DNA from: Candidatus Baldrarchaeota archaeon
Lineage (GTDB): Archaea; Asgardarchaeota; Baldrarchaeia; Baldrarchaeales; DXJG01
Direction of reading: 5' to 3'
Assembly (NCBI GenBank): GCA_019056805.1
Contig: DXJG01000004.1
Span: 150,001 to 182,000, forward strand
DNA: 32,000 bases
Every line of letters starts with the position of its first letter. Position 1 is the first letter of the stretch. The position numbers and the translations under genes are program-made. The notes beneath the pieces were generated by a model. The model did not search any database and was not told the origin of the DNA. It saw nothing but the letters and a program-made list of their open reading frames with translations. Shown here one piece after another: positions 13,944 through 20,498 of the stretch.

Positions 13944-14119
13944 AAGCAAGAAGAAACCCCCAACCTAACAGATCTCTATGTTTCCTTTTTAATGGTATTT
14001 AAAATCCAAAGGGTAATAAAACGTTTGGTCTTAATTAGAGCTAAGTATTTTCTTTTATTTTTATGAAAACAATTTTAAGCATCTGCTAGCATAGCTTTAC
14101 GATGATTGGAGGTGCTGAG

Positions 14120-14527
14120 ATGGTTGGCTGGGAGGAAATTAAAGATTTCTTTAGCAGCTTTGGTAAAGATTTCATGGACATATTGCAAGTTGGAGCTACA
14201 TGGGAGTACCGTGTCTTAGATAGACCTGATCTTGTATGGCATATTGTTAAAGGTGAAGACGGGTTACCGAAAGTTAAAGAAGGACCAGCTGAAAAACCAG
14301 ATGCAATATTATTTTACAGCGAGAAAGCATTAGAATGGATTATTAAAAATACAGCTAGAGATCAAGATGGTAGACCTATTGCACAAGACTTCTATAAAAA
14401 ATGGAAGGAAATTCATGATCATCCTAGACCAGGTTTTGATACTTACTGGGAGCTTAAAATAAGTCTTGGAAGACTTAAAAGAAAAGGCTACATGGAGTTT
14501 GCCAAGAAATATGGATTATTAACATAG
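14120..14527 (+). CDS. Small protein with probable SCP2 (sterol carrier protein 2)-like lipid-binding fold
   Basis: Signature-like KVKEGPAEKPDAIL segment after a beta-meander and a closing GRLK. ATG 14120 follows GGAGGTG. The fold call is by eye. Confidence 0.5.
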   Translation: MVGWEEIKDFFSSFGKDFMDILQVGATWEYRVLDRPDLVWHIVKGEDGLPKVKEGPAEKPDAILFYSEKALEWIIKNTARDQDGRPIAQDFYKKWKEIHDHPRPGFDTYWELKISLGRLKRKGYMEFAKKYGLLT

Positions 14528-14531
14528 GAGA

Positions 14532-16106
14532 GTGAACCTTTTGAACGAGTTACCGATAATTGAAAGAAAATATTTTGAAAGTGACGAGAAACCTGAAAAG
14601 GAGTTGTTTATTGGAGGAAAATTCATTTACAGTGAAAGTGGAAAGTCACTTCAAATAGTTAATCCTTACAATGGTGAAATTGCTGGTTCTGTTCCTTCAG
14701 CTACTCCCAAAGAACTAAAACTTGCAGTAGAAGCTGCGAAAAAAGCAGCGGGAAATATGAAAAATATGCCTTTAGCTGAACGACAACAATTACTTAATGC
14801 GGTTGCAAAGGAAATTGAGAAGAGAATAGATAAAATTGCTAAAACAATAACACTAGAAACTGGAAAACCGATTGAACAAGCATTTATTGAAGCTATGTAT
14901 GGTGCTGCAACTTTCCAAATAATGGCAGCTTCCCTAAGCGAATTAAAGGGAAGTTTTGTTGAAAGTATAGTTGATCCCCATAGGAAATTTGCATTAGAAA
15001 TTTGGGAACCTATGGGCGTTGCAGCAATAATAACACCTAACAACTTTCCATTCCTCCTACCTTGTTACATAGTTAGTGCGGCTATTGCAGCTGGAAACGC
15101 TGTGGTTTTAAAACCTGCAAGCGATGCTCCTCTGAGCGCTATTCATCTTGCTGAGTGTTTTGCAAGTGCTAGCGCAGCTTTTCCTGTTTCGGAAAGGACA
15201 CCTATGCCAACAACAATGTTAAAGGTTATTAGGCTTCCTGAAGGCGCTTTAAACGTTATAACTGGGATAGGCTTAGGTGAGTTTCTTGCAACACATCCAG
15301 ATGTGGATGTTGTCTCTGTTACTGGTGCAATTGAAACAGGTATGAAAGTTTATGAAGCAATAGGTAGGAACGTAATATCAAGTAAGGCTCCGAAACATAT
15401 TTTGCTCGAGCTTGGAGGCTGTGATCCTGCAATAGTTTTTGCAGATGCAGATCTTGAAGAGGCTGTTAACAAACTTGCTTATGGTGCATTTTGTTGGAAT
15501 GGTGAAGTTGCTTTAAGTACTCAAAGAATCTATGTTGAAAAAGAAGTGTATGAAGACTTTTTGGATAGGTTCATAAAATTAGCTAAAGAGATTAAGTGGG
15601 GAGATCCGTTGGACGAAGAAACAGAGATAGGGCCGCTCATAAATAAGGAAACGCTCGATAAAAATCTTGAAACAATAAAAGATGCTAAATTGAAGGGAGC
15701 AGAGATCGTGGGAGGAGTGTATCATGGAATGATACTTGAGCCAACGGTAATTTACCCTATGAAGCCTGAAATGCTTGTCAGCTATGAAGAATCCTTTGGT
15801 CCAGTAGCGGGAATAGCGTCTTTCACAAGTGAGGAAGAGGCTTTAAAAGAGGCAAATAAAACTAGGTATGGTTTAATGGCTGCTGTTTTCACAGAAAATC
15901 TTAGAAAAGCGTTTGATATGGCTAAAAAACTTGAGTCTGGAACTGTGATAATTAATGATAGTACAGAATGGTTCGAGCCGCATATAGCTTTCGGAGGATA
16001 TAAGTGGAGTGGAACGAAAGGACGTGAAGGAGGAATACATGCTATAAAAGAATTTTCAAAAATAAAAACCATAGTAATAGACTACGAAAGACGTAAACAA
16101 ACATAG
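14532..16106 (+). CDS. Aldehyde dehydrogenase superfamily protein lacking the catalytic cysteine (probable pseudoenzyme)
   Basis: ITPNNFP, GNAVVLKPAS, LELGG, EESFGPV and FGGYKWSG are present. The GQxC nucleophile motif reads GEVA (GCT at 15510-15512). Start GTG 14532 or TTG 14541. Confidence 0.88.
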   Translation: MNLLNELPIIERKYFESDEKPEKELFIGGKFIYSESGKSLQIVNPYNGEIAGSVPSATPKELKLAVEAAKKAAGNMKNMPLAERQQLLNAVAKEIEKRIDKIAKTITLETGKPIEQAFIEAMYGAATFQIMAASLSELKGSFVESIVDPHRKFALEIWEPMGVAAIITPNNFPFLLPCYIVSAAIAAGNAVVLKPASDAPLSAIHLAECFASASAAFPVSERTPMPTTMLKVIRLPEGALNVITGIGLGEFLATHPDVDVVSVTGAIETGMKVYEAIGRNVISSKAPKHILLELGGCDPAIVFADADLEEAVNKLAYGAFCWNGEVALSTQRIYVEKEVYEDFLDRFIKLAKEIKWGDPLDEETEIGPLINKETLDKNLETIKDAKLKGAEIVGGVYHGMILEPTVIYPMKPEMLVSYEESFGPVAGIASFTSEEEALKEANKTRYGLMAAVFTENLRKAFDMAKKLESGTVIINDSTEWFEPHIAFGGYKWSGTKGREGGIHAIKEFSKIKTIVIDYERRKQT

Positions 16107-17049: not shown

Positions 17050-17400
17050 CTATTTTTTGGTAAATGTTTTTGGAAAATCCGCTATATCTTTGAAAAATAG
17101 ATCAAAACATTTGTTAAAGACTTCTTTAAAATGTTTTAATGCATTTAAGCCTTTATCTGTAATTCTATAGAGTTTTATTCTTTTTCTTTTCGTTTTTTGC
17201 TCCCATTCTCCACTAATTAATCCTATTTCTTCCAATTGATAAAGGATTGGATAAACGGTGCCAGGGCTAAATTTGTGTCCAGTCATCTCAGTTAATTGAT
17301 TTACGATTTCATATCCATGCATGGTTTTTTTCAAAAGAAACCATAAGATTAAAGGTTTTGCTAGGCCTCTTACTATAGTTCTAAGTATTTCACTTTCCAT
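17050..17400 (-). CDS. PadR-family transcriptional regulator
   Basis: IL..L.K..MHGYEI...L, SPGTVYPILYQLE..GLI, RIKLYRITDKG. Start moved to ATG 17400 after GGAGTGA; overlaps the upstream stop by 11 nt. Confidence 0.92.
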   Translation of the reverse strand: MESEILRTIVRGLAKPLILWFLLKKTMHGYEIVNQLTEMTGHKFSPGTVYPILYQLEEIGLISGEWEQKTKRKRIKLYRITDKGLNALKHFKEVFNKCFDLFFKDIADFPKTFTKK

Positions 17401-18901
17401 AGATGAAATCACTCCTTCCATGCAATTGTGTTGGTAACACCTCATATTTATACATTTCACTTCTAAGATTTTCCCACGCAAACCTATTATTTATACAGCC
17501 AGGGTCTGGAGCAAGATAATCTCCAAAATACCCATACCCTCTTGCTCTACAGCCTCCACAAACATATTTAAACTCACATTCACCGCAGTGTCCCTTTAGT
17601 TTCTCTCTATTTCTTAAATCCCAAAACACAGGATGATTATCCCAAATTTCTTCAAAATCGTCTTCTCTAATATTTCCAACAGGTAATGGGAAGAACACGC
17701 AAGGGGTAATTGTACCGTCGGGATCTAGGGCGCAGTAGAATCGTCCAGCACCACAACCACCAATAAACTCACTTAAATTTAACAATTGACCATGAAGATG
17801 CGGATTGTAAAAATGTGTTGGAACAACTATCTCTTTACTCTCTTTCCCGTATTGTTCTTCCATTTGCAGCGCTACTCTTGCGAATTGTGGAGCAGTGGAT
17901 AACACTTGCATTCTTCTACCTTCTCTCAATCTTTTCCATAAAAATTTCAAAAGTTCCTCTCTTTCTTTCGGTGTAAGGTCATTTTCAATTATGAATCGAC
18001 CTCTACCAGTTGGAACAAAGTTATACATCATCCACCAATTTACGCCAAGTTTTTCACAAAGATCAATAACCTCTGGAATTTCTTTATATGTGAATTTTGT
18101 CGCTGTCGTAGAAACTTCTACAAAAATTCCTTCTTCAACACAATTTTTAATACCCCTAATAGTTTTCTCAAAAACTCCTAGTATGCCTCGGAAGTTATCA
18201 TGAGTCTCAGGCCTTGCTCCATCTAAACTTATTTGAACATATCCTATGCCAGTCTCCTTTAGCTTCTTCGCAATTTCTTTGGTGATTAGAGTTGCATTTG
18301 TTGCAACGGCCGTAAAAATTCCGTGGTCACGCGCCAGTTTAGCTATTTCGTAGAAATCTTTTCTCATCAGAGGTTCGCCGCCAGAAAAAGCTATGATATT
18401 AACACCTGCATCTGCAAATTTTTCCACAACTTTCTTTGCCTCTTCTGTTGTAAGTTCGTTTGGATGAGGTTTTCCTGCTGAAGCATAACAATGTTTACAT
18501 CGAAGGTTACATAAATACGTGTAGTTCCAAACAACTAGGAAAGGTGCACCGGGCACGAAAGGTTTTTGTATTCCAAATTTTGCTATACCTCGGATAACGT
18601 TGACAAGTCCTCTTCTCCAGTAAACATTCTTAAATTTCTCTTTGAAATCTTCTTCGTTTACTTCAAATGCTTTTGCACCTTTTCTTGCTACCCACTCTAC
18701 GATAGGAGCAACTATATGTGTACATGCCCAACATGCACTATTTCTCTCCTTAACGTAGAGTTCCAAAGCTACTTCAAGCCTATTTTTATTGTCCTTTTTA
18801 CAGAACCCAGAGAATTGTCTTAGAAGGAATCTTAAAGGCTTTTTATCAGCTGTAAACTTTAGTAATTCAATGCTTTTTATGGTTGAAGACCTTTCACACA
18901 T
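17390..18901 (-). CDS. Radical SAM/SPASM-domain protein (PqqE/AhbC-like) with a long N-terminal extension
   Basis: CNLRCKHC (18488-18511), FSGGEPLMR, VQISLDG, SPASM motifs GCGAG...C.L.PDG.ITPC and CGEC....VCGGCRAR....C. ATG 18901 follows GGAGG. Confidence 0.93.
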   Translation of the reverse strand: MCERSSTIKSIELLKFTADKKPLRFLLRQFSGFCKKDNKNRLEVALELYVKERNSACWACTHIVAPIVEWVARKGAKAFEVNEEDFKEKFKNVYWRRGLVNVIRGIAKFGIQKPFVPGAPFLVVWNYTYLCNLRCKHCYASAGKPHPNELTTEEAKKVVEKFADAGVNIIAFSGGEPLMRKDFYEIAKLARDHGIFTAVATNATLITKEIAKKLKETGIGYVQISLDGARPETHDNFRGILGVFEKTIRGIKNCVEEGIFVEVSTTATKFTYKEIPEVIDLCEKLGVNWWMMYNFVPTGRGRFIIENDLTPKEREELLKFLWKRLREGRRMQVLSTAPQFARVALQMEEQYGKESKEIVVPTHFYNPHLHGQLLNLSEFIGGCGAGRFYCALDPDGTITPCVFFPLPVGNIREDDFEEIWDNHPVFWDLRNREKLKGHCGECEFKYVCGGCRARGYGYFGDYLAPDPGCINNRFAWENLRSEMYKYEVLPTQLHGRSDFIYGK

Positions 18902-20460
18902 TCTGACCACCCTCCTTCAACCATTGTAAATGTTTCCTTTTTGACGCGGCATTCCTCTATTTTTCCGTAGATTATCTTTCTTATCTTGTTATTTGCTTTC
19001 TTGACAATGTAGTTTATGAAACGCATCATGAATGTTCTTGCAGCCCAATTCATTTTACGGAAATAGTCTTGAGCAAGTTCTGTTAACCAACGTATACCGT
19101 GATCCCAACAAGCCAGCATTAACTCCCAATGATATTCATTCATATTTTGTACTCCAAACCGTTCCTTGTTTCTCAAGGTTCCTAATGGAACGAAAAATAG
19201 CGGTACAATCAAGCTTTTGTAGTCTTTAAGTCGATCTAAGAGTTCAATAGTCTTCACTACATCATCTTCTGTTTCATCTGGTAAACCTAGTATTAAAGTG
19301 GCACAGGGAACCCAATTACTATCTTTACAAATTCCAAAAGCTTGTTCAACTATGTCAGGCCATTCTTCAGGCTTAAATGGAAGAACCTTACCACGCATAT
19401 GCTTACTCATTATCTTATGGCTTCCAGTTTCAATTCCAGTTTGACCTGCAATCCAAGGTTTATCCTTTGTACCAACACCGACAATATTAGATAATTCCTC
19501 CAGTAAAGTTGGCTCAGAAACCACAGACGAAAGGGCAAAATGGCTCGGACCTATACCGATAACATCATCCATTTTCATTATAGCTTCCCAAAGCTCAATA
19601 ACAGCTTGCCGATTAACCCTAATTCCATTAGCTTTGTAACGTAGAATGTCTTCAGCATGCAAATTTATCCATCGAGGTCCATATCTAAGATTAACTTCAA
19701 CTTCCTTCAAAATATGCTCTAAAGGTCTAGAACGAAGCTTCCTAAGAGTCGGGACACAAAATCTGCAACCACGACCACAACCCCTAGCGATTTCAACCAG
19801 AGAGCAAACAGTAGGATTTTTAATAATATGCATATCATCTACTTCAACAACATCTCCATAAACAACCTCAGGTACATTTTCTCCTTGAATAATCTTCTCA
19901 AATAATGGTGGAACTACATTTTCTCCTTCTCCAATAACAACAAAATCTATACCAAGTTCATGACGAGGTCCAGGATCTTCAAGCTGCCAAGCTCCTGGAC
20001 CCCCCACAACTATTTTTGCACCCCATTTTTTAAGATAAGGATCTGTTACAAGTTCTCTAAATTTCCATTTTGTGTAAGATTCCTCATTAACAAGTCCTAA
20101 AGGACCCGAAAAAGTAGTTGAAGCAGGACCTAATCCCAAAGGATCATTTGATGAAATTCCAATAATTTTCGTATTAGGCCCAACAAATTTTCTTATTCTA
20201 TCTGGAACTACAACTGCAACTTCATCTTCATCAAAACCATAATCTAAGAGCGCAGCTTCTATTTTACGTAAACCGTAAGGCGCCATCTTAGCTATTCCAT
20301 TATTATAGAATGGCACAGGTGGACAAACGAATCTAAAGTAGAAGAATGGATTAATAAGGTTCTTTGGTCCGCATGCAGTGAATCCTAGGAAGAGAGCATT
20401 GTGATAATTACTCATTAAGCATCTCTCTGCGGTCAAAACAATCTTATATCCTTCCCTCAT
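18877..20460 (-). CDS. B12-binding-domain radical SAM protein, Grs/Gms-like (GDGT ring synthase / GMGT synthase family)
   Basis: EIARGCGRGCRFC (Cys at 19756-19779), KIVVGGPGAWQL, VIGEGE, TGIETGS. The N-terminal IVLTAER.LMSNYH..FLGF and APYGLRKIEAAL segments match the Grs family as I remember it. ATG 20460 follows GGGGG. Confidence 0.8.
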   Translation of the reverse strand: MREGYKIVLTAERCLMSNYHNALFLGFTACGPKNLINPFFYFRFVCPPVPFYNNGIAKMAPYGLRKIEAALLDYGFDEDEVAVVVPDRIRKFVGPNTKIIGISSNDPLGLGPASTTFSGPLGLVNEESYTKWKFRELVTDPYLKKWGAKIVVGGPGAWQLEDPGPRHELGIDFVVIGEGENVVPPLFEKIIQGENVPEVVYGDVVEVDDMHIIKNPTVCSLVEIARGCGRGCRFCVPTLRKLRSRPLEHILKEVEVNLRYGPRWINLHAEDILRYKANGIRVNRQAVIELWEAIMKMDDVIGIGPSHFALSSVVSEPTLLEELSNIVGVGTKDKPWIAGQTGIETGSHKIMSKHMRGKVLPFKPEEWPDIVEQAFGICKDSNWVPCATLILGLPDETEDDVVKTIELLDRLKDYKSLIVPLFFVPLGTLRNKERFGVQNMNEYHWELMLACWDHGIRWLTELAQDYFRKMNWAARTFMMRFINYIVKKANNKIRKIIYGKIEECRVKKETFTMVEGGWSECVKGLQP

Positions 20461-20486
20461 ACAAAGCCCCCTAGCCACGTGAACCA

Positions 20487-20498
20487 TTACATATGTAA
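20487..20498. promoter_or_regulatory. Perfect 12-bp palindrome TTACATATGTAA, candidate repressor site
   Basis: Verified palindrome 27-38 bp upstream of the B12 radical SAM start, downstream of the predicted TATA box. Confidence 0.4.

Follow-up and report, generated by a model that had tools for sequence, protein, structure and literature searches.

Why would an aldehyde dehydrogenase (ALDH) gene be maintained after its product has lost the catalytic cysteine, and what might such a product do beside an SCP2-like protein? The question is raised by two co-directional open reading frames (ORFs; forward strand, 14102/14120-14527 and 14532-16106) in the DNA of a Candidatus Baldrarchaeota archaeon (Asgardarchaeota; NCBI GenBank assembly GCA_019056805.1). 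The window, as the whole stretch analysed is called here, comprises 32,000 nucleotides (contig DXJG01000004.1, positions 150,001 to 182,000; GC content approximately 35%) of a genome of 1.92 Mb in 18 contigs. A preliminary description, made from the letters alone, had read the pair as an SCP2-like gene coupled to an ALDH pseudoenzyme. Both genes were assigned here by profile, alignment and structure comparison, the nucleophile was found to be replaced under strong purifying selection, and a role in ligand binding is tentatively favoured for the ALDH-like protein.

Replacement of the catalytic cysteine and its fixation

The product of the second ORF matched Pfam family PF00171 (Aldedh) with an E-value of 3.6e-133 (444.9 bits; residues 34-514, profile positions 4-461) and consists of one Aldedh domain, with nothing past residue 514. 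Its best profile matches were non-acylating ALDH families; within NCBIfam the best was the methanogen-type lactaldehyde dehydrogenase NF040648, at 382.8 bits, which falls well short of the equivalog cut-off of 650. The best match among solved structures was MJ1411, the lactaldehyde dehydrogenase of Methanocaldococcus jannaschii (PDB 3pqa/3rhd; E 5e-78, residues 25-517), which has the fold and the cofactor motifs in common with the ALDH-like protein but keeps the cysteine and lacks the N-terminal extension and the insertion of approximately 20 residues found here. HMMER alignments with solved ALDHs placed Ala327 (query GEVALS) opposite the catalytic cysteine of MJ1411 (GQVCIS) and of ALDH1A3 (GQCC(314)T). 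Of the 120 database proteins closest to the query, 117 have cysteine in this column; the remaining three, all with alanine, are orthologues. At the same position cysteine was present in every one of the 116 nearest non-orthologous relatives. The cysteine of G-[QE]-x-C, by which catalytically competent ALDHs are recognised, is absent from the ALDH-like protein.

The other hallmarks of the superfamily are all retained (N171, K194, G245, G249, E293, G295, G324, R332, E420, F422, P424, and N475). The preliminary description had placed alanine at the nucleophile position, counted more than one base change from TGT/TGC to GCT, listed the PNNFP Asn, KPAS Lys, ELGG Glu and EESFGP as kept, and pointed to extra cysteine codons (TGT) in ELGGC and FC; coordinates, codons and alignments agreed with it throughout, the change from a cysteine codon being one of two bases. 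Position 197 is serine in the clade with alanine (the Ala clade) and glutamate in its sister clade. The residue at the equivalent position in ALDH2, Glu195, governs the preference for NAD or NADP, and by this rule the Ala clade may have shifted towards NADP. An AlphaFold2 (AF2) model of the ALDH-like protein had a predicted local distance difference test (pLDDT) score of 86.5 and was weak only at the insertion of residues 218-231 and in a few loops. This insertion of 14 residues is rich in proline and threonine, is disordered in the model, and lengthens one that the sister clade also has; it could serve in docking.

Orthologues of the ALDH-like protein, at 89-94% identity, were found in metagenomes of hydrothermal-vent, subsurface and marine origin, as well as in a metagenome-assembled genome (MAG) of the same genus. 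GCT stands at the nucleophile position in all five independently assembled orthologous loci (the window, L004/L023, and L024/L025), and the TGT codons of C297 and C321 are likewise kept in all orthologues. A contig from an independent sequencing study showed 0 differences over 15054-15632, and in a run containing diverged variants no change at 15510-15512 was among the differences listed. The ORF is intact in every copy. Pairwise Nei-Gojobori estimates between orthologues gave a ratio of nonsynonymous to synonymous substitution rates (dN/dS, or ω) of 0.065-0.09 at dS of 0.27-0.96 for the ALDH-like gene and of 0.02-0.05 for the small SCP2-like gene. In a maximum-likelihood (ML) tree the Ala clade had as its sister group (100/100) archaeal ALDHs of 43-48% identity that bear the cysteine, and its stem branch, at 0.56, was not accelerated when compared with values of 0.55-0.83 for the sister side. 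In 108 other ALDHs, 150 alignment columns reach at least 80% conservation; of these, approximately four or five were lost by the Ala clade alone (L174F, A182S, P183A, and C327A), and eight by the sister clade.

Since GCT recurs across assemblies, dN/dS is low, the stem is not accelerated and few other columns are lost, we regard sequencing error, decay and general erosion as ruled out by these comparisons and the loss as specific to the nucleophile. The preliminary description had likewise argued against a read error, and the relaxed selection that it named as a sign of decay was not found. A recently inactivated, decaying gene, or an error of sequencing or assembly, would be in keeping with the restriction of the substitution to a narrow lineage and with the lack of a copy in two of the four genomes of the genus, although these are just 82-84% complete. 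In G002 and G003, of this genus, the neighbouring GNAT gene was all that was detected of the locus; its 1.9-kb contig ends there, and loss of the pair cannot be judged from it. Against such an origin stand the intact ORF in all copies, the identical codon in the independent run as well as in five assemblies drawn from different samples, the low ω over dS values of up to 0.96, the absence of branch acceleration, and the two base changes needed to reach any cysteine codon. It is effectively refuted already, and we give it almost no credence. The preliminary description had also allowed that the substitution might be unique to this genome; it occurs in several assemblies, all of them from one narrow Baldrarchaeota lineage to which, in the sequences compared, the Cys-less state is confined.

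The ALDH-like protein has four cysteines (C178, C209, C297, and C321), each gained only in the Ala clade. The sister clade carries alanine, isoleucine or leucine, asparagine, and threonine at these respective positions, and its own cysteines stand at 323 and 327.

The SCP2-fold neighbour and its partners in Asgard archaea

The small protein encoded by the first ORF had no sequence match in Pfam, NCBIfam or the PDB, and no Pfam or NCBIfam family, including SCP2 and Alkyl_sulf_C, was detected (E <= 0.01-0.1) for it or for three of its relatives. A HMMER search against 1.8 billion representative sequences returned just seven relatives. With the alignment of these seven as input, AF2 produced a model with a pLDDT of 94.5, for which the top Foldseek matches in the PDB were all SCP2 domains (E from 8e-5, probability 1.0, template-modelling (TM) score 0.45-0.53), including AF1534, human SCP2, the SCP2L domain of MFE-2, UbiJ-SCP2, and alkylsulfatase C-termini. 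VIA-align superposed the model on AF1534 with a Z-score of 8.4 (98 residues at 3.0 A) and on many other SCP2 entries with Z of 7-8; a Z of approximately 8 is moderate, and the list of matches is homogeneous. In AlphaFold-DB the best cluster match (TM 0.74) was to a protein of 521 aa, of which it covered the C-terminal 113 residues. On the predicted structure, the small protein is assigned to the SCP2 fold, and since AF2, Foldseek and VIA-align agree, the earlier SCP2-like call is upheld at the level of fold, though not of sequence family. The predicted fold matches the known carriers over most of its length, and the UbiJ and alkylsulfatase domains, like the small protein, accompany an enzyme whose substrates may be hydrophobic. 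It differs from them in lacking detectable similarity to the Pfam SCP2 sequence family, in TM scores of just 0.45-0.53, and in belonging to a family specific, in the searches made, to Asgard-type archaea. Its nearest non-orthologous relative (P0122; 45% identity, 179 aa, with a Lys/Arg-rich tail; L030 1451-3029) is encoded after a luciferase-like (F420/FMN-dependent) oxidoreductase gene on a contig from Guaymas Basin sediment that ends right after it.

The two genes are adjacent in every orthologous locus of the Ala lineage while the flanking genes differ: a gene of 438 aa is inserted upstream in L023, and the 8-oxoguanine glycosylase and a methyltransferase gene are present or absent downstream. 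With a profile of the small protein, its family was found in 138 of 400 Asgard genomes. Outside the genus of the window, 23 of the 28 best loci carry an SCP2-like gene of approximately 139 aa directly downstream of a Cys-bearing ALDH gene (TNSGQQCFSMKR). The SCP2-like protein of these pairs belongs to the same family (37-41% identity) and stands beside an ALDH, as at the window locus, whereas the ALDH comes from another clade (approximately 30% identity), keeps its cysteine, and precedes the SCP2-like gene; at the window locus the gene order is reversed and the ALDH lacks the cysteine. Because the partner ALDH in Asgard loci normally keeps its cysteine, the pairing is, judging from these gene neighbourhoods, an Asgard-wide module and not specific to the Cys-less state. 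Joint conservation of the Cys-to-Ala change and the SCP2 neighbour, by which the preliminary description had proposed to judge the module, was seen in all orthologous loci, but only within the one lineage (at least 89% identical); beyond it the two are not conserved together, because Asgard SCP2-like genes pair with Cys-bearing ALDHs.

The closest Cys-bearing relatives of the ALDH-like protein had no SCP2-like neighbour in the loci examined, and BLASTP found no similarity between the small protein and the products of the genes upstream of the Cys-bearing P0004 and P0005. These sister ALDHs (43-48% identity) have as neighbours genes for GGR-like flavoproteins, an LplA-type lipoate ligase, radical SAM proteins, DUF8155, and a GcvH-like carrier, and this subfamily may have a connection with the supply of lipoate or octanoate.

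The same genome has a second ALDH locus on another contig, C9 (L002 41-2910, reverse strand; L039 1498-3123, reverse strand). This operon encodes an ALDH of 480 aa with the cysteine (NAGQQCISFKR), a GlcD-like FAD-linked oxidase of 473 aa, and an Fe-S protein of 541 aa with two CCG domains, similar to GlcF/HdrD, the last 130 or so residues of which are a paralogue of the small SCP2-like protein, in a more divergent form of the domain. Such GlcF-like::SCP2 fusions (approximately 520-545 aa) recur in many Asgard genomes of several families. Another subtype of the SCP2-like protein (P0125-type; L033-L036 and L043) is encoded by a stand-alone gene divergent from an operon for an MBL-fold hydrolase and a Zn-dependent alcohol dehydrogenase. 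Because Cys-bearing ALDH pairs, GlcF-like fusions, and MBL-fold/Zn-dependent alcohol dehydrogenase neighbours were all found, we take the family to be one that generally partners aldehyde and alcohol enzymes in Asgard archaea and that is joined here to a Cys-less ALDH of a different subfamily.

At one locus (L068 1981-3405, forward strand; G180:C116) a Cys-bearing ALDH and an SCP2-like gene are followed by a second ALDH in which the cysteine is replaced by asparagine (GQQNFSMKR). A general association of SCP2-like proteins with Cys-less ALDHs was considered from this locus and rejected; the protein with asparagine is a singleton whose nearest relatives have cysteine (P0131) or serine (P0132). 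The proteins of L068 and P0132 represent sporadic losses of the nucleophile in a clade of downstream paralogues.

Gene starts, coordinates and surrounding genes

The coordinates of the features of the pair, together with example loci used for comparison, are listed in Table 1. For the small gene, ATG 14120 is the most likely start, in preference to 14102, because it is preceded by GGAGGTG and because the orthologues all begin with MVSW; the start given in the preliminary description was therefore retained. That description had the ALDH-like gene beginning 4 bp after the small gene, at GTG 14532 (4 nt past the stop codon), which is possible; TTG 14541, 13 nt past the stop codon, is probably the start, since the orthologues begin with LNELP or MDELP and an AGGAGAG site lies upstream.

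Table 1. Positions of features of the gene pair (window coordinates) and of comparison loci (coordinates of the locus named)
Feature	Position	Strand	Basis or remark
Shine-Dalgarno-like GGAGGTG	14107..14113	+	read from sequence; 6 nt ahead of ATG 14120
SCP2-fold protein, 135 aa, no Cys, unannotated family	14120..14527	+	AF2 and structure comparison
ALDH-superfamily gene without catalytic Cys	14532..16106	+	524 aa (GTG 14532); probably 521 aa (TTG 14541)
AAC, Asn171 (PNNFP), oxyanion-hole Asn, kept	15042..15044	+	invariant in 116 relatives and in the query clade
TGT, Cys178 (LLPCYIV), clade-specific gain, beside equivalent of ALDH2 Trp177	15063..15065	+	comparison with clades
Lys194...Ser197 (KPAS), cofactor-binding strand	15111..15122	+	comparison with relatives
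Cys209, clade-specific gain	15156..15158	+	comparison with clades
Clade-specific surface insertion, residues 218-231, PVSERTPMPTTMLK	15183..15224	+	alignment; AF2 pLDDT <50
GAG, Glu293, general-base Glu of ELGG, kept	15408..15410	+	comparison with relatives
TGT, Cys297 (ELGGC), clade-specific gain; sister clade Asn, others mostly Lys	15420..15422	+	codon in all orthologues
TGT, Cys321 (FCWNG), clade-specific gain, equivalent of ALDH2 Phe296	15492..15494	+	codon in all orthologues
GCT, Ala327, nucleophile position (ALDH2 Cys302, ALDH1A3 Cys314)	15510..15512	+	alignments to 3pqa and 6te5
Glu420-Ser-Phe422 (EESFGP), nicotinamide-ribose binding motif, kept	15789..15797	+	comparison with relatives
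Examples of ALDH(Cys)-SCP2-like pair	L045-L070; L031 3480-5408		ALDH FECAGN / TNSGQQCFSMKR type
Sister-ALDH loci	L026 228-3800; L028 1892-11323; contig of P0006		one cluster labelled Altiarchaeota

The pair is flanked by a divergent gene for a GNAT acetyltransferase on one side and a convergent gene for an 8-oxoguanine glycosylase on the other. Further along, on the reverse strand (17050-20487), lies a block in which a gene for a PadR-family regulator overlaps the beginning of one for a radical SAM/SPASM protein (506 aa); another large gene, radical SAM-like (536 aa), comes next. L024 and L025, both orthologous loci, have the same block beside the pair.

Possible roles of the pair and their significance

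In ALDHs the thiol of the catalytic cysteine forms the thiohemiacetal and thioester intermediates, which alanine cannot do; the ALDH-like protein is therefore most likely no conventional aldehyde dehydrogenase. The explanation favoured here, plausible and held tentatively, is that it is a non-oxidising binder of NAD(P)(H) and of a hydrophobic, aldehyde-like ligand received from its SCP2-like neighbour. The two genes would form an operon in this Baldrarchaeota archaeon. The SCP2-like protein would probably solubilise and present a hydrophobic ligand of alcohol or aldehyde type and would hand it to the Cys-less ALDH-like protein, which most likely still binds NAD(P)(H) and the aldehyde-like ligand and would hold, buffer, sense or scaffold without oxidising. 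Continued binding is proposed because the NAD(P) site, the oxyanion-hole Asn and the general-base Glu are intact and the gene is strongly constrained. We infer the class of ligand, that NAD(P) is bound, that no turnover takes place, and that the two proteins touch; a prediction of their complex scored 0.00 and was counted neither for nor against contact. Of the NAD(P)/lipid-aldehyde sensing, sequestering or non-redox module suggested in the preliminary description, the Cys-less ALDH with its other sites kept and the SCP2-fold neighbour thus stand, whereas a pairing peculiar to the pseudoenzyme does not.

Several observations weigh against a purely binding role. Neither the general-base Glu nor the oxyanion Asn would be needed for binding alone, and their retention, with very few conserved positions lost, fits continued catalysis equally well. 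The four cysteine gains look like compensation more than simple loss. The known orthologues cover only approximately 11% protein divergence, so that conservation within the clade says little about single residues. Continued oxidoreductase activity by a non-canonical chemistry is accordingly weighed here as an alternative, unlikely but to be taken seriously. It would be in keeping with the retention of Asn171, Glu293, Lys194, Glu420, Phe422 and the glycine motifs, with the loss of no more than the four or five family-conserved positions, and with the very low ω, and the change from Glu to Ser at 197 suggests a cofactor site that was re-tuned and not abandoned. In one variant a gained cysteine would serve as a relocated nucleophile, the candidates being C321 in the wall of the tunnel, C297 following ELGG, and C178; the four gains coincide with the loss of Cys327 and of the Cys323 of the sister clade, and C321 corresponds to ALDH2 Phe296, which lines the aldehyde tunnel and contacts ligands (PMC8908493, PMC12006823). 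In the other, the substrate would already bear a second oxygen or sulfur, for example as a lactol, a gem-diol, or the hemithioacetal of CoA or another small thiol, and an enzyme thiol would not be needed. Position 296, however, is six residues (approximately two helical turns) from the nucleophile, and a thiol there is unlikely to attain the geometry for hydride transfer and the oxyanion; the position after ELGG is not, to our knowledge, an active-site residue, which counts against C297. No member of the superfamily working without the canonical cysteine was found in the literature searched, and we know of none. The narrower proposal of a working ALDH without the canonical cysteine, in which a hydrophobic aldehyde delivered by the SCP2-like protein would be handled by a relocated thiol or its hemithioacetal would be oxidised directly to the thioester, is improbable; if true, it would give the ALDH superfamily its first catalytic mechanism independent of Cys302, and this in an Asgard archaeon.

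The ALDH-like protein could also lack catalysis and serve as a subunit or regulator in an assembly with the active ALDH of contig C9 or with another enzyme, for which the chance appears slim. A pseudoenzyme accompanied by an active paralogue is a documented pattern among ALDHs: GRM1 microcompartment loci encode a conserved second AldDH, with serine or proline in place of the catalytic cysteine, for which a scaffolding or regulatory role has been proposed (Axen et al. 2014, PMC4207490). The second, Cys-bearing ALDH operon of the genome, moreover, carries an SCP2-like domain of the same family. The two ALDHs, however, are approximately 31% identical, are encoded on different contigs, and fall in different, well-separated clades; at this identity and with separate clades hetero-oligomers are unlikely, and the genome has no Cys-bearing paralogue of the same subfamily. 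The GRM1 protein is, as here, a prokaryotic ALDH paralogue with the cysteine replaced, but it is of the acylating PduP/EutE type and is encoded in microcompartment loci beside an active copy; at the window locus the replacement is alanine, the partner has an SCP2 fold, and an active copy of the same subfamily is not co-resident.

ALDH16 is a protein of approximately 800 aa with an extra C-terminal domain, an architecture not shared by the single Aldedh domain of 521-524 aa found here. According to PMC8160307, citing Liu and Tanner 2019, human ALDH16 is without the catalytic cysteine, is regarded as inactive, and is proposed to be a binding protein, in keeping with the precedent of vertebrate ALDH16A1 as a Cys-less binder invoked in the preliminary description. 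The archaeal protein resembles ALDH16A1 in being a member of the superfamily without this cysteine, and differs in its subfamily (nearest to methanogen-type lactaldehyde dehydrogenases) and in its SCP2-like operon partner. Cys-less ALDH paralogues are thus already known from vertebrates and from bacterial microcompartment loci, and since the GRM1 loci have been described (PMC4207490), the general idea of a prokaryotic Cys-less ALDH is not new. A literature search retrieved no report of a Cys-less ALDH in archaea, as the preliminary description had supposed, nor of an ALDH/SCP2-like module of Asgard archaea or of a Baldrarchaeota ALDH.

Current knowledge is overturned neither by the Cys-less ALDH nor by the SCP2-like family. 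The locus is a clean natural case in which the nucleophile was lost, strong selection was kept, the rest of the active site was preserved, and four cysteines were gained, and it could reveal either the reuse of the ALDH scaffold as a ligand and cofactor binder or a new route to ALDH chemistry. The unannotated SCP2-fold family, a regular partner of ALDHs in about one third of the sampled Asgard genomes and also fused to GlcF-like subunits, belongs to a theme of SCP2 carriers that is otherwise peroxisomal and eukaryote-style, and it points to soluble handling of hydrophobic aldehydes and alcohols in the closest archaeal relatives of eukaryotes.

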